The notes: generated by a model not told the origin, from the letters alone. 64,000 bases of DNA from Spirochaetia bacterium (GCA_963677925.2 CAXXYH010000004.1:288001-352000); one strand, 5' to 3'. Counted from the first letter of the stretch, positions 22,303 to 40,741 are shown. A program made the numbers and translations.

Positions 22303-22387
22303 AGGCCATACTAACCTGATTACACTTAAACTGAAAAGAGCGGGCACCTTGCCTCACTATTATTTTTCAGATATTGTAAAACCGCAG

Positions 22388-24079: not shown

Positions 24080-24089
24080 GGATTTAGCT

Positions 24090-24779
24090 ATGAATGAAAA
24101 TGTTTTTCTTGTTATAGGACTCGGAACCTTCGGTTGGGAAACCTGCGAGGAGCTGGCCGCCCGCGGTGCAAAGGTAATAGCCGTGGACAACAAACCGGGC
24201 CGGATTGAAAAAATTAAGGAGATCGTTACCCAGGCAATCCTTCTCGATTCAACCGACGAGGAAACTCTGTCCACCCTTCCATTTGAAGATGTTGATCTTG
24301 CAGTAATCGCAATCGGAGATAACATTGAGGCAAATATCCTTACAACAGCGCTTCTTAAAAAATCCGGAGTACCATACATCATAGCCAGAGCTGCAACGGA
24401 ACTGCACGAGCAGGTTCTTAAACAGGTAGGAGCAAATGAAATAATCAATGTTGAAAAGGAAGCTGGGATTCAGCTTGCCGAGAAGATAATTGCGCCTGAC
24501 ATCCTCGATAAGGTTCCGGTAACTGCAGACATCAGCGTTGCCGAAGTTTATGTTCCGGAAGCCTTCATCGGTAAAACCCTTCAGAATGTAGACCTTCCGG
24601 GAAAACTGGAACTGACAATAACCGCAATCAAGAGGACTGCCTTTACTGTTGATGAAGAGGGAAACCCGATTATGAATGAATCGGTAGTTTTTCCCGACGG
24701 AACAACCGAATTCAAAACCGGCGACATCCTGCTGGTCGTCGGAAAGAACGATAAGATAGATTCTTTAAAGGGCATTTAA
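24090..24779 (+). CDS. TrkA/KtrA family RCK regulatory subunit
   Basis: VIGLGTFG Rossmann motif, AVIAIGDNIEAN, RCK_C tail. Confidence 0.92.
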   Translation: MNENVFLVIGLGTFGWETCEELAARGAKVIAVDNKPGRIEKIKEIVTQAILLDSTDEETLSTLPFEDVDLAVIAIGDNIEANILTTALLKKSGVPYIIARAATELHEQVLKQVGANEIINVEKEAGIQLAEKIIAPDILDKVPVTADISVAEVYVPEAFIGKTLQNVDLPGKLELTITAIKRTAFTVDEEGNPIMNESVVFPDGTTEFKTGDILLVVGKNDKIDSLKGI

Positions 24780-24780
24780 A

Positions 24781-25578
24781 ATGATCCAGATAAGAAAAAG
24801 CGTACTGATAATCCTTATAGTAATGGCAGCTGCATCAGTCTGCGGAATCGCCCTGTATGCCTGGTCGCTGCTGAATAATTCCGCCGGGTTTTCAGCAGAT
24901 GATATTAAATACTATTCCGAACAGATCGTCTTCGCCGCGGTTGTTCTTGCAAGCCTGCTTATCCTGTTTGTCATCTTAATCTTTTTAAGAAACCGTAATT
25001 TCAACAGGGATCTGGATCGTCTGATTAAACTTGATACAATCAACCCGGCATCAACTGAGAACAACCTCAGACGGCTGGGCAGTCTTGGAAAAAAACTGAG
25101 CCTCCTCTACAGGCAGATAAACGACATCAGCGAGAAAAGAGGCCTCAAGATCGGGGCGCTGACCGCTCTTACTGAATTTCTCTGCATGAACACACAGCTT
25201 CACATCATTCTTACCGACATCACAGGCAGAATCCTCCAGGTCAGCCGCGGATATCTCGATGAAAAGCAGGCTGTCCGTTCTGAACTTGTACTGAAAAATA
25301 TTAGAGCCGTGATGCCGGAAGTCAATTTTCCGGGAATCGTTTCGGAGCTTGAAAAGAGACACCTTCCGGTTGAAGCCGAATCAGGGAATGAAAAAATCAG
25401 GTGGGTACCCATTCACAACCGCAATAATGAAATCAGTTATATTGCTGCAATACCATCCAAAGTTGAGCTGAAACTTCCTCAGTTCAATCCCCAGACAAAA
25501 AAGCCGGCGGACAGAAGACATAATTCTGTTTCCGATTTTATTCACAGGGTAAGAGGAGTCTCAAAAAAGGTCTTTTAA
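24781..25578 (+). CDS. Hypothetical 2-TM membrane protein with possible HAMP/PAS-like cytoplasmic region
   Basis: Two hydrophobic helices then IILTDITGRILQVS PAS-like start; 1 bp after ktrA-like gene. Confidence 0.6.
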   Translation: MIQIRKSVLIILIVMAAASVCGIALYAWSLLNNSAGFSADDIKYYSEQIVFAAVVLASLLILFVILIFLRNRNFNRDLDRLIKLDTINPASTENNLRRLGSLGKKLSLLYRQINDISEKRGLKIGALTALTEFLCMNTQLHIILTDITGRILQVSRGYLDEKQAVRSELVLKNIRAVMPEVNFPGIVSELEKRHLPVEAESGNEKIRWVPIHNRNNEISYIAAIPSKVELKLPQFNPQTKKPADRRHNSVSDFIHRVRGVSKKVF

Positions 25579-25594
25579 AGAATAACGGCAGCGG

Positions 25595-27370
25595 CTATTC
25601 CCCGAACTGAAGCGAGTACAGACTGCTGTAAAGACCCTCCGATGCCAGCAGCTCATCGTGACTGCCGCTCTCTGCAATCCGCCCTCCGGAAAGAACGATT
25701 ATACGATCAGAATCTGTTATTGTTGAAAGCCGGTGTGCAATGACTATTGATGTGCGGTTTTCAAGGATGTTCTTCAGACCCTTCTGAATATATTTTTCGG
25801 TTTCTGTATCAATGCTCGCAGTTGCTTCATCCAGAATCAGGATCGGCGGATCATGGGCAAGTATACGGGTAAAGGCAATCAGCTGTCTCTGGCCGGCGGA
25901 TAGATTAGAACCGCCTTCCGTCAGCTCAAAATCAAAACCGTAGCCAAGCTTTTCAAGCACGGGTTTCAGGCAGGCAGTTTCTGCGGCCTGTTCCAGTGCC
26001 TCATCAGAAATATCCTTTCCAAGAGTAATATTATCCCTTATTGAGCCTGAGAATATAAAAACGTCCTGGGCAACAGCCTGTACAGTCTGCCTCAGTTTTT
26101 TCAGCGGAAATTTTCGGATATCCTCACCGTCAATCTTTATGCAGCCCGAATCGACATCCCAGAACCTGGCTGCCAGGTTTGCTATCGTTGACTTTCCGGC
26201 TCCGGTATATCCGACAATAGCTACTGTCTCTCCGTGTCCGGCAGAAAAACTCACATGCTTAAGCACAGGTTCGCCCTCTTTGTATCCGAAGCTTACATCA
26301 TTGAAAGTCAGCCTTGATTCTTCTGCCGGGACCGTTTCCGGACATCCTTCCGGCTCTTTTCCGGAGTAATCGGGAATATGATCTTCAGTTTCAAGAAGTT
26401 CAAATATTCGCTCGGCACCGGCCATTGCGGACTGCATAACCGTGAACTGTTCAGACAGCTGCTGAAGCGGCCGGTAAAATTTCTGAACTAAATCCAGATA
26501 GGCGATAAGAACTCCCAGGGTAAGAATTCCCTTTGCATGCATTCCGGCACCGAAGTAGATAATTACCGCAAGAGAAACTGTCCCAAGCATACTTATGAGG
26601 GGCCGGAAAACCGCAAATACATACATCTCACCCATATTTGCCCCAAGCAGTTTGTCATTGTTTTTTCTGAAGTTCTCATCTGTGTAATCTTCGTGGGCAA
26701 AGGACTGAACAACCCTTATCCCGGAGATTCTTTCCGACAGAAATGCATTAAGCATAGACACACGCTTTCTGACCCTGCGGTAGGCATCACGCGCCTTTAC
26801 CCTGAAAAAAACAGTAATCAGGATTACCGGAGGCAGAGTCAGTACAGTCAGAGCACCCAGCCTTACATTCAGAAAAAAGAGGACACCTATTACGCCGGCC
26901 ATTACTACAAAATTCTTGATTAACGTCATAACCACCGAAGAGAAGAATTCACTTATTGTCTCAACATCATTCGTTGCCCTCGTCACAAGTGTTCCGACCG
27001 GACTCTTCCCGAAAAAAGACAGGGACTGCCCGGCAGTATGGGAAAGAAGCTCCATCCTGAGAGTTTTCATAATTCCCTGGGCTGCTGCTGACATCAGATA
27101 AACCTGAGCGAATGATGCTATAAGACCTAGCCCCAGAAGGCCTAAGAGAATCAGACTGTTTCCGGCAAGTCCTGAAACAGAGGGGTTTTCACTTAAAATA
27201 TTGGTATCCACACTCCTCTGAATAATCACCGGGGCAAGCAGTTCGGAAACAGTTACCGCGACAAGGGCTGCCAGAGATACAGCGGTATGCACAGAATAGG
27301 GCTTAAGATATGCCAGAAGCTTGCGCATCAAATGAGGGTTATATTTTACAATTATTTTCTCATCTTCCAT
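25595..27370 (-). CDS. ABC exporter permease/ATP-binding subunit (MdlB-like)
   Basis: TM domain + GYTGAGKS, LSAGQRQ, ILDEAT, IAHRLST. Confidence 0.93.
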   Translation of the reverse strand: MEDEKIIVKYNPHLMRKLLAYLKPYSVHTAVSLAALVAVTVSELLAPVIIQRSVDTNILSENPSVSGLAGNSLILLGLLGLGLIASFAQVYLMSAAAQGIMKTLRMELLSHTAGQSLSFFGKSPVGTLVTRATNDVETISEFFSSVVMTLIKNFVVMAGVIGVLFFLNVRLGALTVLTLPPVILITVFFRVKARDAYRRVRKRVSMLNAFLSERISGIRVVQSFAHEDYTDENFRKNNDKLLGANMGEMYVFAVFRPLISMLGTVSLAVIIYFGAGMHAKGILTLGVLIAYLDLVQKFYRPLQQLSEQFTVMQSAMAGAERIFELLETEDHIPDYSGKEPEGCPETVPAEESRLTFNDVSFGYKEGEPVLKHVSFSAGHGETVAIVGYTGAGKSTIANLAARFWDVDSGCIKIDGEDIRKFPLKKLRQTVQAVAQDVFIFSGSIRDNITLGKDISDEALEQAAETACLKPVLEKLGYGFDFELTEGGSNLSAGQRQLIAFTRILAHDPPILILDEATASIDTETEKYIQKGLKNILENRTSIVIAHRLSTITDSDRIIVLSGGRIAESGSHDELLASEGLYSSLYSLQFGE

Positions 27371-29123
27371 TTTCAGCCTGCTGCAGATTATAAATTGTCC
27401 TGTACAGCCCCTTCTCTGACAGAAGCTGCTCATGCGTGCCCTGCTGCGTAATGCAGCCGTCTTCGAGCACTATTATGTTATCGGTATGTGAAAGGGTACC
27501 GATCCTGTTTGAAATAATAATAGAAGTCCTCCCGGCTCTCTTTTCAAGAAAACTCCGGATTATTGAAGCCTCGGTCTCGGAATCAACCGCGGAAAGGCAG
27601 TCGTCGAATATCAGTATTTCCGGATTGGTCAGATAAGCTCTTGATATTGCAACCCTCTGCTTCTGACCGCCGCTTAAAGTATGGCCCCTCTCGCCGACCA
27701 TGGTATCCCAGCCGAAGGGAAATTCTTTAAGATCCCTGCTGATGGTTGAAAAATCCGCGGCCTCCCTTATAAGCTCATCCCCGGCATCAGGAACTGCAAA
27801 CCTGATATTCTCCTTGATTGTCTCGGAAAACAGAAAAGTATCCTGCATAACCACACCGACGTTTTTACGGAGTTCTGAAAGGTTATAATCCCTTATATCC
27901 CGGCCGCCTATAAAAACGGTTCCGGCAGGGACTTCATAAAGCCTTGGAAGCAGACTTATCAGGCTGGTTTTTCCCGAACCGGTCCGGCCGAGTATTCCCA
28001 GCGAATGCCCCTGCTTAAGCTGAAAACTGATATCGGTTAAAACCGGAACGGTAACAATTTCTTCCTTTTTTTCATTATAAAAATCACGTGAATATGAAAG
28101 GCCCCGGACTTCAACATCACCCGCCGGTTTAACATCTATTCCCGCACCGGAGACTATATCCGGCTTCTCATCCAGAAATTCTCCTATTCTTGCAAGTGAA
28201 GCTCCGCCGCGTTCGAGCCAGTTGATGGTAAACCCCGCGCCCATCATCGGCCAGACAAGAAGCCCCAGATAGCTCAGCACCGCGGCAAAGTCACCCGGAG
28301 AGATAATTCCGTTAATTACCTGCTGCCCTCCGAACCAGAGAAGCAGAAGGGAGGTAACTCCGGAAAGAAAGTTGATAAGCGGAAAGAAAAATCCCCATAC
28401 CCTGATAAGAGACATTGCGCGCTGCAGATAAATATCATTTGCAGTTTTAAATTTTTTAGCCGCAAAATCTTCACAGGCGAAGGTTTTGTATACCCTGATT
28501 CCTGCAAAAGTTTCCTGGGTATGAGCGCTCAGGTTTGAAAATCCTTCCTGAACAAGCTTCGATCTTCTGCCCAGCAGTCTTCCTGCGCCAACTACAAGGA
28601 TAAACAGAAGCGGCAGTGGTATCGCAATCCATCCGGCAAGGCCGGGATAATCCCTGAAAAGGATGACAAGAATTAAGGTTGCCATGAACAGCCCGTCAAC
28701 AATAGAGACAACCGCCATCCCGCAGGCCATTCTTATTGCATTCATATCATTTGTGAACCTCGACATTATATCGCCGGTCCTTCTTTTTTCATAAAACCCG
28801 GGAGAAAGTCCCAGAAGATGACGGAAAAGTTTCTGCCTTAGATCACTTTCAATTCGTCTCGCAGTCCCGCCTATAAAAAAGCGCCATCCGAATCGCCCCG
28901 CTGCAATAAAAACGGCAATCACAACCATAATTACCGCAATGTTTAAAATGAGACCGGTACTGCCCTCGCCCGAAGAGATCAAATTTACGGCCCTCTTTGT
29001 AAGCTGGGGAATGTAAATCTGTCCGGCATCTGTTACAACCAGACAGATCAGCCCGGGAATGTAGAAAAGAAGATTCTTTCTGAGAAATGGAAGAAGTCGT
29101 TTGTATTCACCAAGATAAGACAC
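27360..29123 (-). CDS. ABC exporter permease/ATP-binding subunit (MdlA-like, degenerate Walker B/H-loop)
   Basis: GRTGSGKT, LSGGQKQR, IFDDCLSAVD, ISNR; heterodimer partner of downstream gene. Confidence 0.93.
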   Translation of the reverse strand: MSYLGEYKRLLPFLRKNLLFYIPGLICLVVTDAGQIYIPQLTKRAVNLISSGEGSTGLILNIAVIMVVIAVFIAAGRFGWRFFIGGTARRIESDLRQKLFRHLLGLSPGFYEKRRTGDIMSRFTNDMNAIRMACGMAVVSIVDGLFMATLILVILFRDYPGLAGWIAIPLPLLFILVVGAGRLLGRRSKLVQEGFSNLSAHTQETFAGIRVYKTFACEDFAAKKFKTANDIYLQRAMSLIRVWGFFFPLINFLSGVTSLLLLWFGGQQVINGIISPGDFAAVLSYLGLLVWPMMGAGFTINWLERGGASLARIGEFLDEKPDIVSGAGIDVKPAGDVEVRGLSYSRDFYNEKKEEIVTVPVLTDISFQLKQGHSLGILGRTGSGKTSLISLLPRLYEVPAGTVFIGGRDIRDYNLSELRKNVGVVMQDTFLFSETIKENIRFAVPDAGDELIREAADFSTISRDLKEFPFGWDTMVGERGHTLSGGQKQRVAISRAYLTNPEILIFDDCLSAVDSETEASIIRSFLEKRAGRTSIIISNRIGTLSHTDNIIVLEDGCITQQGTHEQLLSEKGLYRTIYNLQQAENGR

Positions 29124-29209
29124 ATGCTACTTTACACATTATATCGGGCAGAATCAACAAACAGAAAAAAAACCTTGATTTATTGTTTTTCTGCTAATAT
29201 AAATATTGA

Positions 29210-30370
29210 ATGATTATAGAAAAAGCGTTTATCCACTATTTGAACATCCCTTTTAAAATGACATTCAGCCACTCTAAAGCAGACAGAGCCCACTCGGATT
29301 CCATAATTCTTGAAATACAGGCCAAATCTGCCAGCGGTAAAGAGATATTCGGTTACGGCGAAGCTGTAATACGTGAATATGTTTCCGGAACTATTGAGAA
29401 TTCAGACACCGAAGAAGAGGCGGTTACTTCGGTATTCAATGAATTCCTTAACGAATTCAGAAGCAGGGAACTTTCTCCCGACAATGTTCTGAATGAGCTT
29501 AAGGCTTTCAATCCCGAAGCTGAAAAACTGCCTGTCCTCTGCGCAGTTGAAACCGCAATGCTGGACCTCCTCTGCACCGAGACCGGCTCGGATATTTATA
29601 ATCTGCTTGGAGTCGAGCCGCAGAGAGAAACAATCGTATACGGCGGTACGCTGCCTGTCCTCCCGATTCCGGCGGCCCGCAAACTTATGGGCGCATATAA
29701 ACAGATGCAGATTCCTAACCTGCGCATCAAGGTCCTTGATGATACCGCCTACAATACCGAAATACTGGCTCTGGGCCGTGAAATCTTCGGTGATGATTAC
29801 CCGCTTAAAATTGACGCCAATGCGGCCTGGACAGCAGAGACTGCAGTAGAAAATTTTCCGCTGCTGAAAAAGTTCGGAATAACGATCATTGAAGAACCCT
29901 TCGGCAGAAATGAGTCCGAAATGGATAAGATCAAAAAGCATGAGGCATTTGATGATTTTATTTTTATGGCGGACGAATCGGCACTTAACATGGAAGATCT
30001 GAAGGCTGCAGTCAAAAACAAAACATATAAAATGATAAATATCCGGCTCGCAAAAAACGGAGGCCTTTTAAAAGCTCTTGACTTAGCCGCTTTTTCTGAC
30101 AAAAATGGTATGAAATATATGTCCGGATGTCATGTCGGAGAAACAGGAGTACTCAGTGCTGCCGGAAGAGCGGCCGCATCCATAATGAAAAATCCTGTCT
30201 TTACCGACGGGTCGTTCGATGCCCATTTACTTGAAGGAAATGTAACCGAAGATGATTTAAGCTTCGGCCTCGGCGGTATCGCCGGTATAATAAGGAATAA
30301 AAACCTGGGTTTTAAACTCAGCAGAAAAAATCTGGAAGGGTACACTATTGAAAAAAGAACTTGTTTTTGA
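29210..30370 (+). CDS. Enolase superfamily enzyme (muconate lactonizing/dipeptide epimerase-like)
   Basis: GYGEA capping domain; metal ligands in IDANAAW, IEEPF, MADES; RIK on beta2; NIRLAKNGG; GCHVGETG. Confidence 0.88.
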   Translation: MIIEKAFIHYLNIPFKMTFSHSKADRAHSDSIILEIQAKSASGKEIFGYGEAVIREYVSGTIENSDTEEEAVTSVFNEFLNEFRSRELSPDNVLNELKAFNPEAEKLPVLCAVETAMLDLLCTETGSDIYNLLGVEPQRETIVYGGTLPVLPIPAARKLMGAYKQMQIPNLRIKVLDDTAYNTEILALGREIFGDDYPLKIDANAAWTAETAVENFPLLKKFGITIIEEPFGRNESEMDKIKKHEAFDDFIFMADESALNMEDLKAAVKNKTYKMINIRLAKNGGLLKALDLAAFSDKNGMKYMSGCHVGETGVLSAAGRAAASIMKNPVFTDGSFDAHLLEGNVTEDDLSFGLGGIAGIIRNKNLGFKLSRKNLEGYTIEKRTCF

Positions 30371-31163
30371 ATTCTGGCTTGAAAGCAACCGGAATTGGCT
30401 GGAAAAATGCGACGGTAAAACTCTCGGAATGACTTTCTCTGCAGGCAAGGACTCATCTGTCTGCCAGTATTTTCTTAATGAGGTAAAAGAACAGTTCAAT
30501 TTTAAGCTGAAATCCTACCTCTGCGCATATCCGAGGCACAGATATTCTGATGAAGTGAATAAAAAGCTTCAGGACTACTGGGCTTCAAAGGGTGTCGATA
30601 TCTATGTACAAATACCCGAAGAGGGCGATGATCTCATGGAAAACACAAAAAACCCCTGCAGACCATGTCAGAATATTAGAAAAAGCGCTCTTCCGGAAAT
30701 TTTCAGCCTGATGAAAACTCCGGTATCAGATATTGTAATTGTTTCCGGTCACAGCCTTTGGGATATAGCAGCCTATGCCTTAAATGCCAACATTGCAAAA
30801 GAACTGGCGATCCCAAACGAAGACGATGAAACCCTAACAGACAAGCGCCTTCTTGAGGTTTCACAGAGGTTTTATCCCTTCTTTACAATGCCGGAAGGCT
30901 ACTCAGTTTACCGCCCCCTGCTGTACCTGAATCAGGCTGATATTCATCAGTTCTGCAGCGAATTTTCAATTCCAGTTATTGAGGAAGAATGCCGATATTC
31001 GTCTTGGAGGCCTAAGAACAAATTATCCGAATATTTCAGTATGTTCGGTTACAATTTTGAATATGAGCAGGTTTTTAATTACGCACAGAAATATCTTAAC
31101 ATTATTCCTCTTGACCATATTCAGACTATCAAAAGCAAAGAATATCTGTCTGAGCATTTTTAA
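30348..31163 (+). CDS. PP-loop ATPase, TtcA/Ctu1-like
   Basis: FSAGKDS PP-loop, PCRPC, SGHSLWD, VYRPLLYL. Confidence 0.8.
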   Translation: MKKELVFEFWLESNRNWLEKCDGKTLGMTFSAGKDSSVCQYFLNEVKEQFNFKLKSYLCAYPRHRYSDEVNKKLQDYWASKGVDIYVQIPEEGDDLMENTKNPCRPCQNIRKSALPEIFSLMKTPVSDIVIVSGHSLWDIAAYALNANIAKELAIPNEDDETLTDKRLLEVSQRFYPFFTMPEGYSVYRPLLYLNQADIHQFCSEFSIPVIEEECRYSSWRPKNKLSEYFSMFGYNFEYEQVFNYAQKYLNIIPLDHIQTIKSKEYLSEHF

Positions 31164-31184
31164 TACAGGAAAAGGTCCCGGCAG

Positions 31185-33083
31185 ATGGTGATAAATACGT
31201 CCTTTGTCGAAAACCGGCAGGAAAATGATATAAAGTTTACAGCAACAACAGAGCAGGCCCTGAATGAGGTAAACTGTACAAACAGCAAGGCTGTATATCA
31301 CTATGTCAGAAGGCATAAGCCGGACAGACTAAAGGACCTTTTTACGAATCTGCCCGAACCATATGATTCAATATCAAATATTGAAGCTTATCTGACCGAT
31401 GAGAACAACTGGGTCTCCTCCGAACTGATTACAAAACTGTTTGATAACGCATCAGATATTTTTGAGGATCCCGGTGTTGCATTCAATATCGGAATGGAAA
31501 CAATCACCACAAAAACAATAGGAACCCTTCAGAGCTTCTTTCTTACAACCTTTGCTACACCAAAAAGTGTAATTAAAAGACTGAATCAGATTAATCAGCA
31601 GTTCAATACAACCAAGGTTATCGAAACAGTATATATCTCAAGCAAACGGACAGTTGTAAGGCTTCACTGGAAGGAAAACAGCAAGCTGAGCAAGAATATC
31701 TGCCTTTACAATCAGGGTGTATATGCTGCAATCCCTACACTCTGGGGACAGCCGCCGCAGACGGTTACAGAAACAGAATGCTACTTCAACGGAGCCCCCT
31801 ACTGTCAGTACAACGTCACCTTCAATAAAAAAAATATATTCAAGTTCAGCTTCAAGAATCAGATTAAATCACGGAAATCCAGACTTCTGTTAGCCCTTGA
31901 AGAGATTGAAAACGACAAGCTTCTGCTTAAAAAGAAGAATGATGAAGTTATAAAACTCAACCTGGAACTGAAAGAGAAAGTCGAGCGGCTTAAAGCCATT
32001 AATGAAGCCTCCCGCCTGCTTGTTTCAATGGTTGATGCAGATGAAATACTAAAAACCACAATGAACATCATCGTGGATGTTTTAAAGTTCGACCGGGCGC
32101 TTCTCATGCTTATAGACAACAACAATGAGTATCTGGAATACATACACTCCACAGGCGCAAAGAAAGAAGAAGTCGATCTTAAACTGAAAAACTACCGCAT
32201 ACCGCTGTCAAGAAAAGAAAATATCCTGATAAGAACTACACTTGACGGCAAACCGGTTCTTATAAAAAATGCAGTTAGGGCCGGCCTCAACCCGAACAAC
32301 CTTATCATCCGCGAATTCAGTCCTAACTCTATAGCATTCTGTCCGCTGATAACCTCCAAGGGTGCAATCGGTATTCTTGCAGCCGACAGGATGGTTTCCG
32401 ATAAGCTCATCACAAGGAAAGAACTCGAACACCTGTCCATCTTTGTAAACAACATGGCTGTGACCCTTCACAAGGTCCGTCAGGACGAAGAAATCGAACG
32501 CAGCTATATCAATACAGTCAAAGCCCTCGTAAAGGCCATTGAAGAGAAGGATCCGTACACTAAGGGTCATTCCGAACGCGTGTCGCTTCTTGCAACCCGG
32601 ATAGCTACAGCCATGGATCTGTCCAAGGAAGAAGTGGAATTCATCAACATCGGCAGCCTTCTCCATGATGTCGGGAAAATCGGAATTCCTGAATCAATTG
32701 TAAGGAGCCCAAAAAAGCTCTCTGCTGCAGAATACAACATTATCAAATCTCACCCTGAAAAAGGCGCAGAAATTGTCAGCCCCATCAGGAGATTCAAAGA
32801 TCATGTCTACCTGATTAAATACCATCATGAGCATTTTGACGACACAGGATACCCTGCAGGCCTTAAAGGCTATGAAATTCCCGTTGGAGCTCAGATTGTT
32901 TCCATCGCAGACACCTATGATGCCATCACATCTTCAAGAGCATACAGAAAAGGCCTGCCAATGCAGGAGGCCGCTCTACGGATTGCGCAGGCCAGGGGAA
33001 GACAGTTCAGTCCTGAAGTAACAGACGCATTTCTGCGTGTTTATGAGACCGAAATACTCTCCGGACGCCTGAAATTAGGCTAG
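31185..33083 (+). CDS. HD-GYP phosphodiesterase with N-terminal V4R/HNOB-like sensor and GAF domain
   Basis: ETECYFNGAPYCQY V4R-like motif; FDRALLML...CPL..KG.IGILAADR GAF; KDPYTKGHSERV, LHDVGKIG, HHEHFDDTGYP, IADTYDAITSSRAYR. Confidence 0.9.
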   Translation: MVINTSFVENRQENDIKFTATTEQALNEVNCTNSKAVYHYVRRHKPDRLKDLFTNLPEPYDSISNIEAYLTDENNWVSSELITKLFDNASDIFEDPGVAFNIGMETITTKTIGTLQSFFLTTFATPKSVIKRLNQINQQFNTTKVIETVYISSKRTVVRLHWKENSKLSKNICLYNQGVYAAIPTLWGQPPQTVTETECYFNGAPYCQYNVTFNKKNIFKFSFKNQIKSRKSRLLLALEEIENDKLLLKKKNDEVIKLNLELKEKVERLKAINEASRLLVSMVDADEILKTTMNIIVDVLKFDRALLMLIDNNNEYLEYIHSTGAKKEEVDLKLKNYRIPLSRKENILIRTTLDGKPVLIKNAVRAGLNPNNLIIREFSPNSIAFCPLITSKGAIGILAADRMVSDKLITRKELEHLSIFVNNMAVTLHKVRQDEEIERSYINTVKALVKAIEEKDPYTKGHSERVSLLATRIATAMDLSKEEVEFINIGSLLHDVGKIGIPESIVRSPKKLSAAEYNIIKSHPEKGAEIVSPIRRFKDHVYLIKYHHEHFDDTGYPAGLKGYEIPVGAQIVSIADTYDAITSSRAYRKGLPMQEAALRIAQARGRQFSPEVTDAFLRVYETEILSGRLKLG

Positions 33084-33207
33084 CCTTCTAGTACTTTTTC
33101 ATTATAACCAAAAATTAATAGAAATTCGAAAAAAACGACTTGCCACGTCCAAATTCATGTGATGAAATGATTATTACACAAAAATTAGTAAAAAAGAGGA
33201 CGTTGCC

Positions 33208-34086
33208 ATGAAATTAAACCTATCAAAGTTCTGTCAGACCCGTTTCAATGTAATGATGTTCAAAAAGTTCAACCCTTACCTGTGTTTCAGTTACATGCAG
33301 ACACTAGGAAAAATTTACTACGCGCTCAATAAAAAAGAGAGGGATCTAATCAAAACTAACATTCGGGATCTGCTTGAAGGTAGAGATGAACAATTCATCC
33401 GGAAGACAACTAAAGAGGCTTTCAGGGGTATTTTCACTCACTACTTTGAGAAAATGTTTTCAGCCTATCGTAACTATCCTGAAATAAAGAAATTCATGCA
33501 GCAGAAATTTACAATTGAAAACGAACACCTCATCCAGAATGCGCTTGCTGAAGGCAAGGGTGTTGTTCTTGTCACAGCACACTGGGGAGCAGTGGAATTT
33601 ATTCCCTGGCTTCTGGCTCTGAAAGGCTACCCCATCAGTGTTATTCTTGAATGCCAGACAGATCTCCTGATGGAATCTTTAAATGATAAAACCCGCTTTG
33701 TTGACGCGGAACTAATAACTGAAGACAACTGCAGAAATGTACTGTTTGAAGCCTTCGGATGCCTCAGCAGAAACAGGGTTCTCATGACAGAATGTGATGA
33801 AGTTGATAAATGGAGAAAAAGGAAAACCCAGACTATTAACCTCTTCGGTAAAACTCTTTATTTTGACAACACACTTGATGTTCTGGCAAGAAAGGCCGAC
33901 TGTCCGGTTATAGGAACCTTCCTAAAAAGAAACGGAAACGGAACTTATACACTGTTCTGTGAAGAAATTGAACGCGGAAGAGGGACAGCTAAGAACGCAC
34001 TTGAGATGTGGCAGAAATATGTTTCCGAGAATCCTGAACAGTGGTATCAGTGGAAAAAGTGGAACAAGATGAAGGCTGCCGTCTAA
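33208..34086 (+). CDS. Lysophospholipid/LpxL-like acyltransferase
   Basis: ALAEGKGVVLVTAHWGAVE (Hx4E), LFGK, PEQWYQW C-terminal motif. Confidence 0.88.
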   Translation: MKLNLSKFCQTRFNVMMFKKFNPYLCFSYMQTLGKIYYALNKKERDLIKTNIRDLLEGRDEQFIRKTTKEAFRGIFTHYFEKMFSAYRNYPEIKKFMQQKFTIENEHLIQNALAEGKGVVLVTAHWGAVEFIPWLLALKGYPISVILECQTDLLMESLNDKTRFVDAELITEDNCRNVLFEAFGCLSRNRVLMTECDEVDKWRKRKTQTINLFGKTLYFDNTLDVLARKADCPVIGTFLKRNGNGTYTLFCEEIERGRGTAKNALEMWQKYVSENPEQWYQWKKWNKMKAAV

Positions 34087-34862
34087 TTGAGTTTTGTATC
34101 GGCAATCTTTTTTTCAATATTCTCCTGCAGCGTTTCGAAGATAAAGGAATGGATCCGGTTTTTAGTTGCCGGGTCTGTTCTTTTATCAAAAAGAAGAACA
34201 TAGATAATATTGTTACCTTCCGCACGGCGGCCGATAACAGGCCCTGAAACCCTTGCAAGCTTTCCTTTCAGTTTGACCTGCATATCAGAAAGAACGGTAT
34301 TCTGGGGAATATTCACATCATCGGTAGTAGAAAAAGCCATACCGACAGAACTGATATCTCTTATTATTCCGGAGCGCAGGCTTCCGTTAAAATTAAAATT
34401 ATATTCAGTATTTTTAAGTTCGCTGCTGTCGATTCGGAGGTACTTTCTACGGCCTTTTGCCTCATTTGCTTCAAGAGTCTTTAAAATAATTTTTTTGCTC
34501 TGCTCAAGCCCCAGTTTAAGAATGACGTACCCGCAGGGAATCATAAGATCCATCAGGTACTTTTCAGCCATTGATTTATCTTCATTATAGGTTACTACAC
34601 CAAGCATGGCTGAATTGTCATCACTTTCCATCATCTCTTTAATATATTCAAACCAGTCATTATCTTTAAGAGCTTCATCAATATTTACAAAGACAATGGG
34701 ATCCTGATATTCGGATATCAATTTCCTGAGTCTCTGATGATCGCGTACCTGATATACTGCATACTCATTTTCAACCAGCTCTTTAACCAGTTCCTGTTTT
34801 ATCACACTATGAGGATATAAAAAGAATACCACTTTGGAATCGAAAGTGTTGCTGCCGTTCAT
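34083..34862 (-). CDS. PilZ domain protein (c-di-GMP receptor)
   Basis: RRKYLR (RxxxR) and DISSVG (DxSxxG); ATG 34862 after CAGGAG. Confidence 0.88.
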   Translation of the reverse strand: MNGSNTFDSKVVFFLYPHSVIKQELVKELVENEYAVYQVRDHQRLRKLISEYQDPIVFVNIDEALKDNDWFEYIKEMMESDDNSAMLGVVTYNEDKSMAEKYLMDLMIPCGYVILKLGLEQSKKIILKTLEANEAKGRRKYLRIDSSELKNTEYNFNFNGSLRSGIIRDISSVGMAFSTTDDVNIPQNTVLSDMQVKLKGKLARVSGPVIGRRAEGNNIIYVLLFDKRTDPATKNRIHSFIFETLQENIEKKIADTKLN

Positions 34863-34943
34863 CAAGTCTCCTGAATTAAGATTAGGCCATGTTCCAATTT
34901 CAATCAAGCTGTAATTTTTCAATTTCTGTGCTATTTTTAACTG

Positions 34944-35498
34944 ATGAAATTAATTTCTTTCCTTGGAAACAAGGGTAAAAAATATGAAAAAACAAGGCAC
35001 AACCTGGCCTGGATTGTATCAGAAGATGTAAATAATCTTAATTCTGCGGTCTGGAATTCCAAATTCAATGCAGACTTCACCAGCTTAAAAAAGAACGGCA
35101 CAATTTATCTTTTAAAACCAATGACTCTAATGAATCGAAGCGGGCAAAGTATCGCCGCGGCTATGAATTTTTATAAACTGAAACCTTCTGATCTTGTCGT
35201 TGTTCATGACGATCTTGAACTGCCGTTCGGAACAGTCCAGCTTAGAAAAGGCGGCGGCACAGCAGGTCATAACGGATTAAAATCCATTGTCAGCCAGATC
35301 GGTGCTTCAGATTTCATCCGCTTCAGACTCGGCATTTCAAGACCGCCCTCCGGCTGGAACGTTTCAGATTTTGTACTGAGCAGGTTTTCACCAGAGGAAG
35401 AGGCTGAACTTGATGACTATGCAGCTGCTGCGGCCGCAGTAATCGACAGGCTTATCGACGGGAACTCTGTCGATGAATGTAAAATCAAACTCATTTAG
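34944..35498 (+). CDS. pth: Peptidyl-tRNA hydrolase
   Basis: LGN.GKKYEKTRHN, KPMTLMNRSG, VHDDLELP, GHNGLKSI. Confidence 0.96.
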   Translation: MKLISFLGNKGKKYEKTRHNLAWIVSEDVNNLNSAVWNSKFNADFTSLKKNGTIYLLKPMTLMNRSGQSIAAAMNFYKLKPSDLVVVHDDLELPFGTVQLRKGGGTAGHNGLKSIVSQIGASDFIRFRLGISRPPSGWNVSDFVLSRFSPEEEAELDDYAAAAAAVIDRLIDGNSVDECKIKLI

Positions 35499-35544
35499 TT
35501 GAAAAGGCTATTATAATAGCATAGTCTTATATCGGAGATTATTG

Positions 35545-36096
35545 ATGTTCGTTGAAGCTGAAGTATGGAATGTAGCACACACAGATCAGGGATATGCAGT
35601 ACTGGTTAGACCGGTTGGAACAAAATCGGCTTCACCAATTTTTATTGGACAGCTTGAAGCCCAGTCCATTCTGGTCGGCATGAGCGGAATCCCGATGCCC
35701 AGACCTAATACTCATGATCTTATGATGACCGCACTTACTGAAACCGGTTGGACAATAGAGAAAATTGAAATAAGCGAACTTAAAGAGGGAATATTCTTTT
35801 CTTCTGTAAAGATGACAAACGGCGAACAGACGCTTGATCTGGACTCAAGACCCTCTGACAGCATAGCTCTGGCAGTAAGAGCAGGATGCCCAATTTTCAT
35901 ATCAGAAGAGCTTATTGATGAAACAGCCGTTTCACTTCATTTTATATCAGATAAACTTGAAACATCAGACTCGGAAACAGAAAACCTTAAACTTGAACTT
36001 GAAAAAGCACTTGATGAAGCGGTAAAGCTTGAACACTACGAGGATGCTGCTAAAATCAGAGACCAGATAAGAAAGATGGACGAAGATCTATTCTGA
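35545..36096 (+). CDS. Bifunctional nuclease family (DUF151) protein with C-terminal UVR domain
   Basis: PIFIGQLEAQSI, RPNTHDL, DSRPSDSIALA; EHYEDAAKIRDQI. Confidence 0.9.
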   Translation: MFVEAEVWNVAHTDQGYAVLVRPVGTKSASPIFIGQLEAQSILVGMSGIPMPRPNTHDLMMTALTETGWTIEKIEISELKEGIFFSSVKMTNGEQTLDLDSRPSDSIALAVRAGCPIFISEELIDETAVSLHFISDKLETSDSETENLKLELEKALDEAVKLEHYEDAAKIRDQIRKMDEDLF

Positions 36097-36152
36097 ATAA
36101 AAAAACAGGCCAAACTTGACCAGAAAATTTTTAACATGTAAACTGTTTTCAA

Positions 36153-36797
36153 ATGGGCAAAATTAATCTTATCAGCGGCGATCAGCAGTTTTCAGAAATT
36201 TTGAAAAACAGAATCAGAAGATCTGGAGGGCTTCCCGTAAACCTTTTAGAAGAAACCGAAATTGACTCAAATATAGAGTCAGATGAAGGTGAATCACAGA
36301 TTCTATGGAATAAAAGATCATCTCTGTCGGCACGAAATGCTGTTTTAAGCTGTATAAACCGCTACGAACGCATTGACGAAGCTTTTATATGCTATCAGCC
36401 CGAAGAACTAAACCGGGCTTTTCATGAAATGTCCGCACCGGTTTACGATCTCCAGATCGACCGCTGGATACGGGGTTACGGATATCTTCTGAAGGAACTG
36501 CTGCATGTTTTTATCAAGCAGAAATCCGGCAGACTTTCACTGATACTTTCATCTGATGATTCCAGGCTTATGACCCCCCTTGAATCAGCAGTTTATTCCT
36601 ACCTGAGAACATTTATAAAAAACCTTTCATCATTCTACCAGGATGAACCTGTCTCAATACTCTGCTTCGAAACTGACAGCAGAAATACAGGAGAGTTTTT
36701 TGATTACATTTTCAGGATAATCGATGACGGAAAATACTCACCCGGAAAGGTATATAAATATTCTGAACGAAAAAGTCTTTTTGATTTTAAACGCTGA
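36153..36797 (+). CDS. Hypothetical protein (degenerate SDR/Rossmann-like)
   Basis: 214-aa ORF with own promoter; no catalytic YxxxK seen. Confidence 0.6.
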   Translation: MGKINLISGDQQFSEILKNRIRRSGGLPVNLLEETEIDSNIESDEGESQILWNKRSSLSARNAVLSCINRYERIDEAFICYQPEELNRAFHEMSAPVYDLQIDRWIRGYGYLLKELLHVFIKQKSGRLSLILSSDDSRLMTPLESAVYSYLRTFIKNLSSFYQDEPVSILCFETDSRNTGEFFDYIFRIIDDGKYSPGKVYKYSERKSLFDFKR

Positions 36798-36839
36798 GAT
36801 TTGTTGAAATTCCACTCCAATTAGGATATTGTTCTCTCT

Positions 36840-38069
36840 ATGAAAATATGGTTGAAGCTTCTAATTGGTATCGTTGCAGGCATTCTGCTGGGCATTTTTG
36901 TTCCTGATTCAAAAATTGATATTTTATTTCTTGAAAAGTTTTCTTCTCTCGCCGTAAATCTCGGCAGATACATATTGTTCCCGCTCATTCTTTTCAGCGT
37001 AATAATGGGAATTTATCATCTTAATCAAAACAAGAAGGTTCTAAAACTTTTTATAAGAACAATTATTTATATGCTAATCGCAACAGCCTCACTGGCGGCA
37101 ATCGGGACGGCATCTGTACTGGTGCTCTCACCGGAAAGAATACCTATTTTCATTGAAGAGAGCTCCAGAATAAGCCTTCCCGGATTATTTGAAACTCTGA
37201 TGACAATATTTCCGAAGAACTTTTTCAGAGCCCTGTTCATTGACGGAAACCAGCTTCTGCCGGTTTTTATAATGGCGGTACTAATCGGATTCAATCTCAA
37301 CTTTGACAAAGTAGTAACACGCACCGCAGTTCAGGTTTTCGACTCACTGAAATCTGTGTTCTATCACATCAACTCATTTATTATTGAGCTGCTTGGATTA
37401 ATCATCATTCCTTCAGTCTGGTATATAACTGCACAGATTTCAAGAACCGCAGAAATTGCTCCGTTCACACAGATGCTTCTTGCCATTCTCATTGATATCA
37501 TTTTTATAATATTTGTACTTTACCCGGTTATAATCTACCTGCTGACAGGCAGAAAAAACCCTTACCGGTACATTTATGCAGCACTTGCCCCATCCCTCGC
37601 TGCATTATCAACAGGCGACAGTCTTTTCTGTCTGGGACTTCAAATTAAAAACAGCCGTGAAAATATGGGTTCAACCCCTGATGCCGGATCCGTTAACCTT
37701 CCCTTTCTTGCCGTTTTCGGTAAGGCCGGAACTGCAATGATCACCGGCATCTCCTTTATAGTAATTTTAAAATCTTACTCCAGTCTCGGGCTTAATCTTT
37801 CAGGTGTCATCTGGGTGATTGCTTTTTCATTTCTTTCATCGTTTATAATCAGCCCCTTCCCTGGAAGCGGAGTTTTTGTTGCTGTATCAATGCTATGTAC
37901 TATTTACGGAAGAGGTCTTGAAGAAGGCTATCTGATTTTAAAACCGGTCATTCCGGTTCTCCTCAGTGTCAGCGTCATGCTTGATGCAATGACAAACTCA
38001 CTGATATCAATGCTGTCCTCCAAAAAGACCGGACTGCATGATGATATTCCAATCAGCAATTTCAGCTGA
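36840..38069 (+). CDS. Dicarboxylate/amino acid:cation symporter family protein
   Basis: Multi-TM; LLIGIVAGILLG, IFPKNFF, ALSTGDS, GKAGTAM. Confidence 0.82.
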   Translation: MKIWLKLLIGIVAGILLGIFVPDSKIDILFLEKFSSLAVNLGRYILFPLILFSVIMGIYHLNQNKKVLKLFIRTIIYMLIATASLAAIGTASVLVLSPERIPIFIEESSRISLPGLFETLMTIFPKNFFRALFIDGNQLLPVFIMAVLIGFNLNFDKVVTRTAVQVFDSLKSVFYHINSFIIELLGLIIIPSVWYITAQISRTAEIAPFTQMLLAILIDIIFIIFVLYPVIIYLLTGRKNPYRYIYAALAPSLAALSTGDSLFCLGLQIKNSRENMGSTPDAGSVNLPFLAVFGKAGTAMITGISFIVILKSYSSLGLNLSGVIWVIAFSFLSSFIISPFPGSGVFVAVSMLCTIYGRGLEEGYLILKPVIPVLLSVSVMLDAMTNSLISMLSSKKTGLHDDIPISNFS

Positions 38070-38080
38070 ATATTTTCTGC

Positions 38081-38779
38081 TTAAAGATTAAAGCGGAACC
38101 CGATTTCCAGATTGATTTTTAACTGGTCATAAAACGCGGTTCCGCTGCCGTCCCACAGATTGTAGAAAGGCAGATCGGTTCCTGCTTTAATATTCAGAAT
38201 ATATGAATCCGAAAAATTCCAGTTAAAAAATCCGCCGGTATAGAGGCTTAAAAATCTGGCTTTTGCAAAATAATACTGTCTTACAAGCGCTACATCATCT
38301 CCGGCATTATCGTAGCCAATCAGGGGCAGTCTGAACAGAAGCGAGGGAGCGCCTGTTACCCCCAGTTCAAACTCTTCAGAGAGCGGGAAGATAACACCTG
38401 CTTCCGGTCTTATATCGATAGAAAGTATTTCAATTCGGTCTGCGTCTTCCCGGGTTGCAGGAACCGGTCGCGAAACATCATCACTGAAAATAACTGTATA
38501 CGGAAAATAGAATCTGATACCGGGATCAAGATAGAAAAGATCGCCTATCCTCATAGGGACCGAAATACCGGCCGGATAAATGATAAATGGCGATGCTGCC
38601 GAACTGATATTGGCGTCAGTTTCAGAATTAAATACAAAGAAACCCGCACCGGTTACTGTTATTCCTATAATATCAAAGCCGGGTAGAATTTCAGCCTCGG
38701 CAAATATTACCCCTGAAGGAAGTATCAGGAAAAAAAGGAGAATAAACAAAAACAAAATTTTTGGGGTTCGGTTTTTCAT
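38081..38779 (-). CDS. Hypothetical exported protein, possible outer-membrane beta-barrel
   Basis: Signal peptide; alternating aromatic/Gly strands; C-terminal LEIGFRFNL. Confidence 0.6.
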   Translation of the reverse strand: MKNRTPKILFLFILLFFLILPSGVIFAEAEILPGFDIIGITVTGAGFFVFNSETDANISSAASPFIIYPAGISVPMRIGDLFYLDPGIRFYFPYTVIFSDDVSRPVPATREDADRIEILSIDIRPEAGVIFPLSEEFELGVTGAPSLLFRLPLIGYDNAGDDVALVRQYYFAKARFLSLYTGGFFNWNFSDSYILNIKAGTDLPFYNLWDGSGTAFYDQLKINLEIGFRFNL

Positions 38780-38783
38780 ATCT

Positions 38784-39968
38784 TCAGAATATATCACCAA
38801 AAGCAAGCGAGATCAGCCCGGCTCTTCCAATCTCGGGGAAACGGAATTCTTCCCAGGACAGCAGATAGTTACTGCCGTCCGACCATATTCCTGTATACCG
38901 GAAATCTTCAGGAAGAACCGGAAGCTTAATGATCCTGAGTTCATCTCCGCAGACAATAATCTTATTACTGTAAAGGATGTTCCATCTGCCCTCAGCGTAG
39001 CAGGCTTCCAGAACAAGCGGAGAACGGTATGCGTTTCGTCCATCGTCTGACCGGCTTATAACCGTAACCGGAGAAAGGTGATCCTCTAAACCGGAGAGAC
39101 CGGCACTCTCAGAATTCATGTTCAGATAAATAATCCCCGCATCTCTGATTTCATCACCTAGAAGGCCCTCACCTGCCGCCCTCCGGAATCCCCGAAGAGC
39201 AAAGGGCGTTGACTCAATATCTACAGGATTATACTTTGCTCTGAAATAAGATTCATCAATTTCATTAATAGCCTTACCCTCATTATCATGCTGAAGGTAA
39301 CGGAACAGGGTCTTCTTTTCATCTGAATATTTCCACGCAATAAAAAATCCTTCACTGGTTCTGATAATCTCTACAGGTTCCCAGCCTTCATCCATACCGT
39401 TTACGGCAATATCAATAAATTCAAAACGATCCGCACCGGATCCGGCAGCACTGTAGCGAACAAGCTGAGCAGAAGGTTTCCTGACGCCTGCATTATCTGA
39501 AAAGATATCATCCCCGAAGAAATGAAAGAGAATATCAGAACCGCTTCCAAGCAGGCTTCCCAGGCATCTATACTCTGCCTGGCGCATGAATGAAGTTTCG
39601 TTCCCGGATTTTATTTCAGGAAATATCGGAAGACCGTTTTCAAAGAAGATTACCTTTGGCAGAGCCCCGTTTATTCCGGCAACCACACCCTTTGTGCCGG
39701 ATCTAAAGTCTGCAATATGCAGCTGATCGGTCCAGGCTATGAAATCTTTAGCCGGAACAAGGCTGAGAATTCTTCCAGCATCAGGATTATCCCGCATCGG
39801 AACAGGAAGCAGCTGTCCTGAGTCGTTTAAATAAAAAATACCGACTTTTTCAGTGCTGCTTCGATAATCAAATACAGAAACATCCGCACTAACAGCTCCT
39901 GAAAGAAATATTAAAAAAAGAAGTATACAGCAGGAGACCGGAGAGAGTAATTTGCTTTTTATTATCAT
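38784..39968 (-). CDS. Hypothetical exported protein
   Basis: 394-aa ORF with signal peptide in three-gene operon. Confidence 0.7.
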   Translation of the reverse strand: MIIKSKLLSPVSCCILLFLIFLSGAVSADVSVFDYRSSTEKVGIFYLNDSGQLLPVPMRDNPDAGRILSLVPAKDFIAWTDQLHIADFRSGTKGVVAGINGALPKVIFFENGLPIFPEIKSGNETSFMRQAEYRCLGSLLGSGSDILFHFFGDDIFSDNAGVRKPSAQLVRYSAAGSGADRFEFIDIAVNGMDEGWEPVEIIRTSEGFFIAWKYSDEKKTLFRYLQHDNEGKAINEIDESYFRAKYNPVDIESTPFALRGFRRAAGEGLLGDEIRDAGIIYLNMNSESAGLSGLEDHLSPVTVISRSDDGRNAYRSPLVLEACYAEGRWNILYSNKIIVCGDELRIIKLPVLPEDFRYTGIWSDGSNYLLSWEEFRFPEIGRAGLISLAFGDIF

Positions 39969-39971
39969 ATG

Positions 39972-40661: not shown

Positions 40662-40741
40662 TAGTAGCCTCCATTTTTGAATATCGTACATTTTTACTCT
40701 TTTCTATAGTAAAAATATAAAGTCATATTTATAATATAGAT

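Follow-up and report, generated by a model that had tools for sequence, protein, structure and literature searches.

A conserved four-gene cassette of Spirochaetia that joins three enzymes to a predicted ligand-sensing HD-GYP protein

In diffusible signal factor (DSF) signalling, whether built on RpfF with RpfC/RpfG or on RpfF with RpfR, an enzyme gene lies beside a sensor that controls cyclic di-GMP (c-di-GMP), and the logic is that of a lipid-like signal; RpfF is a synthase of the crotonase family and RpfG an HD-GYP enzyme. H-NOX sensors are a second reference point, since they pair with histidine kinases or with c-di-GMP enzymes. Here we describe a locus that recalls both, found in a 64,000-nucleotide stretch of DNA (hereafter the window) from a Spirochaetia bacterium (GCA_963677925.2 CAXXYH010000004.1:288001-352000) whose genome is 99.6% complete. 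Four co-oriented genes encode an enolase-superfamily protein (ENO), a PP-loop protein (PPL), a soluble sensor ending in an HD-GYP domain, and an acyltransferase (ACT). That these four form one functional cassette we hold with considerable confidence. An earlier note on this DNA had proposed them as a unit, and the proposal has gained ground: their order is conserved beyond synteny, they are absent together from a sister genome (G004), and the link crosses phyla.

An enzyme paired with a ligand-sensing c-di-GMP enzyme is an arrangement of a known kind, that of DSF, and in the literature we reached neither the components nor the sensor domain family has been described. Pfam and NCBIfam scans of 17 window proteins (positions 22349-40691) returned no crotonase/ECH family match, so RpfF is not among them. 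Unlike the REC-HD-GYP and PAS-GGDEF-EAL sensors of DSF systems, that of the cassette has H-NOX/V4R, GAF and HD-GYP in a single component, and the enzymes belong to the enolase superfamily, the PP-loop family and the LPLAT family. The earlier note knew of no characterised pathway with this gene set, and our literature searches likewise found no published description of the cassette, nor any work joining the enolase superfamily, a PP-loop enzyme and an acyltransferase in one gene cluster. For HD-GYP proteins with V4R, the searches turned up only an alphaproteobacterial census, which was available in part. The accessible text of a preprint on HD-GYP architectures (10.1101/2021.11.05.467447) contains 'V4R' 0 times and 'HNOB' once, an entry in its tables or supplements being possible. 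The genes and domains of the cassette are as follows.

29210-30370, plus strand: ENO, 386 aa, enolase-superfamily protein of the MLE subgroup
30348-31163, plus strand: PPL, 271 aa, TTG start, PP-loop ATP pyrophosphatase
31185-33083, plus strand: sensor phosphodiesterase, 632 aa, with an N-terminal H-NOX/V4R-fold domain, coiled-coil linker, GAF and HD-GYP
31269-31829, plus strand: predicted ligand-binding domain of the sensor, residues ~29-215, modelled H-NOX/V4R fold
32523-33020, plus strand: HD-GYP catalytic domain of the sensor (Pfam HD_5)
33208-34086, plus strand: ACT, 292 aa, LpxL/LPLAT-family acyltransferase with an HX4E dyad

The open reading frame (ORF) listing bears out the co-orientation and the spacings that the earlier note had given: ENO and PPL overlap by 23 bp, and gaps of 21 bp and 124 bp separate PPL from the sensor and the sensor from ACT. 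Because an alignment of 15 homologues shows PPL to be conserved over its first 27 residues, both its TTG start and the overlap with ENO are taken to be real. The translations carry SAGKDS and PCRPC (PPL), HWGAVE (ACT), and LHDVGK with HHEHFDDTGYP (sensor). A scan of 28900-35100 showed no terminator-like site in the intergenic gaps, with promoter and terminator counts within shuffle expectation, and an Rfam scan of 25000-36000 at E<=1 gave just a chance miRNA match and no riboswitch.

A 15-member alignment searched against 185,579 species, each represented by one genome, yielded 29 loci, all of which were compared with the 17 window proteins by tblastn; 22 carry PPL at 36% identity or more, and 7 a PPL-like gene of 25-30% identity. 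Within the former group, 18 of the 21 loci that can be assessed have ENO immediately 5' of PPL and co-oriented with it (L028 starts within PPL, so the position of ENO is not assessable there). The exceptions are L026, where an ENO-like gene of 29% identity lies downstream on the opposite strand, and L027 and L030, which have no ENO. The HD-GYP sensor follows 3' of PPL in 13 loci (L010-L021 and L028), all labelled spirochaetes, and ACT follows 3' of the sensor in every one, giving the order ENO-PPL-sensor-ACT; L017 has an M28 peptidase gene inserted between sensor and ACT. Co-occurrence of the four genes in other genomes was one of the checks that the earlier note had called for, and the 13 sensor-bearing spirochaete loci thus all show the same order. 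The overlap of ENO and PPL is conserved as well: the spirochaete loci and L022 share one of 23 bp, and L023, L024 and L037 one of 41 bp. In the window's own family the entire 18-kb region from TrkH to DUF2259 is syntenic and is alone uninformative on linkage. The one gene order is found, however, in at least five unrelated flanking contexts:

Context 1 (window and L010-L013): TrkH...ABC, cassette, PilZ-Pth
Context 2 (L015, L016, L018, L019): amylase, FkbM methyltransferase, long-chain acyl-CoA ligase, cassette, two unknowns, H+-PPase
Context 3 (L017): FAD oxidase ... methyladenine glycosylase, cassette
Context 4 (L020): ABC pair, cassette
Context 5 (L021): rhomboid, FtsJ, unknown, cassette, aspartate kinase, GHMP kinase, threonine synthase

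The arrangement goes beyond chance, since the same order recurs in 13 loci over at least five unrelated flanks. The two families are also alike in size, with 45 PPL clusters and 49 clusters of the sensor subfamily in the same collection of 5.8 billion clusters.

The sister genome, which belongs to the same family and is 100% complete, supplies the complementary case. It has no PPL and no orthologue of ENO (best ENO E-value 1.9e-5); the only homologues of the sensor and of ACT in it are paralogues on other contigs, 25% and 37% identical respectively. The syntenic site reads Pth, PilZ, ABC_A, ABC_B, with a gap of 17 bp between PilZ and ABC_A and no gene between them. The four genes have been gained or lost as one indel unit, and the window's cassette sits, in opposite orientation, within what is elsewhere a PilZ-ABC_A-ABC_B run.

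Linkage extends to loci labelled Desulfobacterota. An overlapping ENO-PPL pair is retained in L022-L025 and L037 at 42-48% identity, and in L037 the gene order is FadL; an ACT homologue (35%, minus strand); a 916-aa sensor kinase; ParA-like and helix-hairpin-helix genes (minus strand); ENO; PPL. The first 420 residues of the 916-aa protein match the N-terminal domain and GAF of the window sensor (33%, residues 30-452) and are followed by PAS-HisKA-HATPase-REC, and L022 and L023 begin with the tail of an orthologous kinase (58% and 86% identity). By sequence comparison, then, the same sensor domain sits on a hybrid histidine kinase instead of HD-GYP in Desulfobacterota, a swap of output across phyla. 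More distant versions keep part of the association. Four of the seven loci with a 25-30%-identical PPL-like gene also carry a sensor homologue (L031, L033, L034, L035): in L031 and L033 an HD-GYP-form sensor lies directly upstream of the PPL-like gene and a SAM methyltransferase downstream, L034 has a kinase-form sensor and a 699-aa PilZ protein, and L035 a fragmented kinase form. Sensor-domain subfamilies are paired with distinct sets of tailoring enzymes, namely ENO, PPL and ACT; a PPL-like protein and a methyltransferase; or a B12-radical-SAM enzyme and a methyltransferase.

The last of these pairings is a paralogous system seen in L054 (G004:C9, 5092-11372) and L057 (G005:C114, 1045-5195), where a 25%-identical sensor-GAF-HD-GYP protein has as its neighbours a B12-binding radical SAM enzyme and a methyltransferase of SAM class I; L054 adds a 714-aa PilZ-domain protein, also adjacent. 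The distant Desulfobacterales version (L031 7842-19571; L033; L034 10001-16752) has two predicted transmembrane helices after the sensor domain. L031 additionally encodes an FMN reductase and a GDSL lipase, and in both L031 and L033 an ABC pair that shares 36-42% identity with that of the window lies 5 kb from the system. ParA/MinD-like ATPase and helix-hairpin-helix genes accompany ENO-PPL in three Desulfobacterota loci (L037 5755-6967, L022 2665-3946, L023 367-1615), in varying position, and are absent from spirochaete cassettes. The PPL of the Desulfobacterota loci L022-L026 is 42-45% identical to the window's, little less than the more distant spirochaete copies (L014-L021), at 46-53%. There are hints, from sequence, that the ENO-PPL pair may have been transferred between phyla.

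In the sensor, Pfam places a GAF domain at residues 284-428 and HD_5 at 447-612 (HD_5, 3.5e-35), leaving the N-terminal domain to other methods. Pfam V4R falls below its gathering cut-off in all four sensors scored (12.2-23.8 bits against 31, the window sensor at 18.4), no Pfam HNOB match was returned for the sensor, and a sensor profile run against PDB sequences found no relative. As this last search gave only coiled-coil noise, the fold had to come from structure. An AlphaFold (AF2) model of the N-terminal domain, built from 17 sequences (pLDDT 76.2), matched Nostoc H-NOX in Foldseek at 9e-7 and DmpR, MopR and PoxR at 3e-4 to 1e-3. By VIA-align the model superposes on Nostoc H-NOX with Z 14.9 and an rmsd of 2.9 A over 169 of 182 residues, ahead of the VirS N-domain (Z 12.4), Bet3 (about 10) and MopR/PoxR (9.5-9.8). 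The 'V4R' label of the earlier note accordingly survives at the level of fold, through the matches to H-NOX, DmpR, MopR and PoxR, but not at that of the Pfam family.

H-NOX domains have a conserved proximal His ligand and a YxSxR motif that holds the haem propionates. The columns invariant among the 17 sensors are N33, P46, D72, W76, G103, P126, C173, G178, C199 and C207, with no His and no YxSxR among them, and the haem-ligation features of H-NOX are for that reason lacking. Compared with H-NOX sensors, then, the cassette domain shares the fold over its whole length and, within its family, outputs of HD-GYP or hybrid-kinase type, but it is fused to its output, has no invariant His, and carries a Cys triad spaced as in DmpR. 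The spacings between C173, C199 and C207 are 26 and 8, the same as between the DmpR zinc ligands C151, C177 and C185. The zinc ligands of DmpR are C151, E172, C177 and C185, according to the accessible part of PMC7264223, and a conserved Glu stands 3-4 residues before C199 in the sensors, against 5 in DmpR. DmpR, XylR, MopR and PoxR thus share with the sensor a superfold and the identical Cys-x25-Cys-x7-Cys spacing, and with DmpR, as far as that same source goes (PMC7264223), an enclosed hydrophobic pocket followed by a coiled-coil linker. They differ in output, which is a sigma54 AAA+ activator in place of HD-GYP or kinase, and in that Pfam V4R is sub-threshold for the cassette domain. From the model, the domain reads as a non-haem H-NOX/V4R ligand pocket with a predicted structural metal site. 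OrpR was considered as a precedent for an Fe-S cluster in a V4R fold and set aside, its cluster being placed in a PAS domain in the accessible text of PMC8359166.

The N-terminal domain subfamily comprises 49 homologues, 44 of HD-GYP form and 5 of histidine-kinase form, and all 44 of the former contain LHD[VI]GK and HHExx[DN]GxGYP. By these motifs the sensor is a predicted HD-GYP c-di-GMP phosphodiesterase. The earlier description of it as a soluble, ligand-sensing HD-GYP protein is supported by the modelled H-NOX/V4R fold, the GAF domain and an HD-GYP domain whose motifs are intact across the family. A profile search of 1.84 billion representatives found the domain in 2,399 clusters at E<=0.001, 1,279 at 1e-10 and 248 at 1e-30, nearly always at the N-terminus. 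For outputs, 50 proteins of at least 571 aa were picked down the list of 150 matches listed; 38 of the 50 are histidine kinases (many hybrid), 7 carry HD_5, and 5 are other or incomplete. One of these 5, P0139 (1040 aa), is a predicted ABC half-transporter (4-478) carrying a sensor-like domain at 676-865, either a fusion or a gene-calling artefact; it was rejected as an orthologue of the window's ABC proteins, its ABC part being just 29% identical to both, and is given little weight.

ENO matches Pfam MR_MLE_C at 1.2e-24. The nearest NCBIfam models, those for DgcA racemase, OSBS, NSAR and dipeptide epimerase/AEE, all score far below cut-off, and the best solved relative is the dipeptide epimerase 3jva (2.3e-23; aligned segments lkikv/lrikv and niklmkcgg/nirlaknggl). 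In an alignment of 15 sequences, the metal ligands D202 and E228 are invariant and D255 is present in 14, in register with 3jva. The catalytic lysines fare differently. The KxK motif reads R172-I-K174, with Arg in place of its first Lys and the second kept, and R279 occupies the position of the strand-6 catalytic Lys in 14 of the 15, only the 28%-identical L026 protein having Lys. With Arg for the first KxK Lys (R172) and for the strand-6 catalytic Lys (R279), a two-base racemase mechanism is unlikely. ENO thus resembles the dipeptide epimerases, NSAR and OSBS in being closest to them in sequence and in keeping the D/E/D Mg2+ ligands and the second KxK Lys, and departs from them at the first KxK Lys, at the strand-6 Lys and in its equivalog scores. 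The assignment to the enolase superfamily made in the earlier note stands on the MR_MLE_C match and the Mg2+ ligands, minus one of the two racemase lysines. Prediction of an ENO-PPL complex scored 0.00, no answer, which speaks neither for nor against binding.

PPL narrowly exceeds the Pfam cut-off for ATP_bind_3 (2.8e-6, 27.6 bits against 27), and its family is small, with 45 homologues at E<=0.001 in 5.8 billion clusters. Across 15 homologues the SAGKDS residues S31, G33, K34, D35 and S36 are invariant, as are C104, C107 and C215. A PPL profile run against PDB sequences places NcsA (6scy) first at 5e-4, then TilS and TtuA; PCxxC aligns with cluster cysteines of NcsA, and the third Cys is distal. 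The AF2 model (pLDDT 90.9) finds NcsA in Foldseek at 1.4e-8, followed by TtuA, TilS and LarE. With the NCBIfam model for TtcA, PPL reaches 15.9 bits where 272 are required, and with that for the TilS N-domain 35.5 where 93.6 are. The call of 'TtcA-like' therefore holds for the superfamily, NcsA and TtuA being the closest folds, and fails for the TtcA equivalog. On this modelled likeness PPL resembles the [4Fe-4S] thiolases NcsA and TtuA, its own cluster being putative. The features shared with NcsA/TtuA/TtcA and with LarE/CtaC/YcfA are the PP-loop, CxxC with a distal Cys, and the best fold matches; unlike NcsA, TtuA and TtcA, PPL has 271 aa, scores far below the equivalog cut-offs and is coupled to an enolase-superfamily gene. 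We know of no translational coupling to an enolase-superfamily gene among tRNA-thiolating PP-loop enzymes. Sulfur insertion into small molecules by PP-loop/[4Fe-4S] enzymes is described, in the accessible parts of the sources, for LarE (PMC9283937), closthioamide CtaC (PMC6772006) and YcfA (PMC12494993).

ACT scores 43 bits for Pfam Lip_A_acyltrans (PF03279; 4.2e-11, cut-off 22.3), and its HWGAVE aligns with HfGtwE of LpxM (5kn7) with the HX4E dyad in register, which agrees with the earlier call of an Hx4E acyltransferase. All LpxL/LpxM equivalog models are far below cut-off. ACT is the only PF03279 gene in the genome, where no LpxC (PF03331) match was found in a search that matched the control genomes. 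Because LpxC is missing and ACT is the sole PF03279 gene, lipid A is not the acceptor of ACT, and a lipid A/MsbA reading was rejected. ACT is thus like LpxL and LpxM in its family match and aligned dyad, and unlike them in belonging to a genome without LpxC and in lying always beside a sensor gene. The ACT paralogue of the sister genome adjoins a PlsC-type acyltransferase. For the lipid signal that the earlier note had also suggested there are only hints, in an acyl-CoA ligase upstream of the cassette in one lineage and in FadL at two Desulfobacterota loci.

Flanking genes are of lesser standing. Those that abut the cassette in the window are:

25595-27433 and 27360-29123, minus strand: ABC exporter half-transporter pair, MsbA/SmdAB-like (Pfam ABC_membrane + ABC_tran twice)
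34083-34922, minus strand: PilZ-domain protein, 279 aa (Pfam PilZ, 7.9e-5)

ORF coordinates confirm, as had been reported, that the ABC pair is divergent from ENO across 86 bp and that the PilZ gene is convergent with ACT. The PilZ gene overlaps the stop of ACT by 4 bp. Neither is needed as a core part, and both were rejected as such: they stand contiguous in the sister genome, which has no cassette. Of the 11 four-gene loci that could be assessed, only 5 have the ABC pair next to the cassette and 4 have PilZ there (the near relatives L010-L013), so the earlier inclusion of these genes is better taken as context. The two ABC ORFs as listed overlap by 74 bp (27360-27433), and the downstream gene (25595-27433) may start further in. 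In the sister genome PilZ, ABC_A and ABC_B are contiguous on one strand (L056, G004:C11, 9652-13917), suggesting a c-di-GMP-receptor/ABC-exporter operon. Elsewhere, in L015 (5706-8776), L016, L018 and L019, a gene for a long-chain-fatty-acid-CoA-ligase-like protein of 660-686 aa lies ~75 bp upstream of ENO and co-oriented with it, preceded by an FkbM-family methyltransferase gene, in a single spirochaete lineage.

What the cassette does is a separate matter from its being one. To the reading that we favour, that a hydrophobic metabolite, which may be acylated and carry sulfur, is made or modified by the enzymes and read by the sensor to tune c-di-GMP, we give a little under an even chance. Each chemical step of this scheme, the identity of the ligand and its equation with the product of the enzymes are what we infer from gene linkage, domain folds and motif states, which are observed. 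ACT would acylate a small acceptor that bears a carboxylate, with acyl-ACP or acyl-CoA as the donor. ENO would hold the carboxylate via Mg2+ while its single remaining Lys abstracts the alpha-proton, chemistry that would suggest elimination or isomerisation over two-base racemisation. PPL, translationally coupled to ENO, may then adenylate a carbonyl or carboxyl oxygen and replace that oxygen, the likeliest replacement being sulfur from a three-Cys [4Fe-4S] cluster, as in NcsA/TtuA. The hydrophobic product would enter the pocket of the non-haem H-NOX/V4R domain, from which a signal passing through coiled coil and GAF would alter hydrolysis of c-di-GMP by HD-GYP; in Desulfobacterota the same ligand-binding domain would drive a hybrid histidine kinase instead. 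The combination of a PP-loop enzyme with an acyltransferase, along with the methyltransferase and B12-radical-SAM partners of the paralogous systems, suggests a biosynthetic or tailoring role, not a catabolic one; synthesis of the ligand, as the earlier note proposed, is one candidate, beside its modification or consumption. We favour enzymes that make or tailor the sensor's ligand because they are of ATP-consuming and acyl-transferring types, because the paralogous systems have tailoring partners, because the receptor is cytoplasmic, and because the output has been swapped with the neighbours kept.

Several observations weigh against this scheme. The window's own HD-GYP reads HHEHFDDTGYP (~32880-32912, residues ~566-576), with Asp for Gly and GYP intact, and all 44 HD-GYP-form homologues keep that Gly, including a 95-98%-identical sister (HHEHFDGTGYP); the change may be genuine or may stem from a sequencing error. 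The sensor-domain family, at 2,399 clusters, is far wider than the enzyme families (45 PPL clusters), and it follows that the domain in general does not depend on these enzymes. The reaction of ENO is not readable from its relatives, and the protein might be a subunit that binds without catalysing. The nearest folds to PPL are tRNA-modifying enzymes, and its substrate may be a nucleic acid. ACT has its own ribosome-binding site in the 124-bp gap ahead of it, and a single four-gene transcript is thus only putative. That the metabolite is both made and bound by the cassette would be our supposition, since the molecule may be self-made or external, and the FadL-family outer-membrane channel encoded next to the system in L026 and L037 would suit the import of a foreign compound as much as the re-entry of a self-made one. 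The enzymes might in that event act on an external hydrophobic nutrient or xenobiotic, fatty-acid- or acyl-amino-acid-like, whose presence the sensor reports to c-di-GMP or a phosphorelay. Such uptake and processing, which we judge unlikely, would also suit the co-oriented CoA ligase upstream of ENO in the four loci named above, the lysophospholipase-like hydrolase convergent with PPL in L023, and the role of DmpR, MopR and PoxR, relatives by structure, as sensors of external aromatics. The cassette has, however, no dehydrogenase, thiolase or other energy-yielding step, the methyltransferase and B12-radical-SAM partners of the paralogous systems typify tailoring, and the links to FadL and CoA ligase are limited to a few related loci.

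Tailoring of a membrane lipid with feedback, in which ACT, ENO and PPL modify an envelope lipid or head group while the sensor monitors an intermediate so that c-di-GMP behaviour follows the state of the envelope, is improbable in our estimate. ACT does belong to the LpxL/LPLAT family, its paralogue in the sister genome does lie beside a PlsC-type enzyme, and MsbA-like ABC exporters occur at 5 of 11 assessable loci, with the 36-42%-identical pair 5 kb away in L031 and L033; but lipid A is excluded on the grounds given for ACT, the ABC pair persists without the cassette, and absence of the cassette from the complete sister genome means that the lipid would have to be dispensable. Quite doubtful, too, is maturation of a cofactor, whereby ENO and PPL, with or without ACT, would build a permanent prosthetic group in the H-NOX-like pocket, the stimulus being a gas, redox or metal. 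The Cys spacing of the DmpR structural zinc site suggests a structural metal instead, an invariant His and a YxSxR-type motif such as H-NOX has are missing, and these enzymes cannot be a requirement for most of the 2,399 related sensor clusters. What speaks for a cofactor is the full-length match to haem-binding H-NOX (Z 14.9), the three invariant Cys of the sensor domain, the roughly one-to-one occurrence within the subfamily (45 PPL, 49 sensor) and the cofactor made by LarE-type PP-loop enzymes, as the accessible part of PMC9283937 describes it. Finally, the view that common descent alone has kept the four genes together, with no functional link, is close to refuted: the 18-kb TrkH-DUF2259 synteny does make conservation within the window's own family uninformative, but the same order stands in at least five unrelated contexts, the association persists across phyla with a swapped output domain, the four genes were lost or gained as a unit, and the ENO-PPL overlap is conserved.

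Taking the favoured reading, of a ligand made or tailored by the cassette and read by its sensor, to its furthest extent, ENO, PPL and ACT might make a new class of diffusible, acylated thioamide or thioacid signal that is read by a non-haem H-NOX/V4R domain. This would be an undescribed cell-to-cell system of anoxic sediments, feeding c-di-GMP hydrolysis in spirochaetes or a hybrid-kinase phosphorelay in sulfate-reducing Desulfobacterota, and one representative of an unannotated sensor family of ~2,400 clusters, each member with its own tailoring enzymes. We offer this extension as speculation that is unlikely to hold.

Should the cassette prove to produce the ligand that it senses, bacterial cell-to-cell or metabolic signalling would gain a new signal chemistry and a new type of receptor, both of them linked to c-di-GMP in spirochaetes and, in sulfate reducers, to phosphorelays. 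Regardless of the ligand, the analysis defines a widespread N-terminal sensor domain that Pfam misses, of ~2,400 clusters, attached mostly to hybrid kinases and HD-GYP enzymes among those scanned. The Arg-for-Lys member of the enolase superfamily, coupled to a TtuA-like PP-loop enzyme, is an uncharacterised enzyme pair in its own right, and the pairing of sensor subfamilies with particular enzymes provides a direct route to finding the ligands of these sensors.

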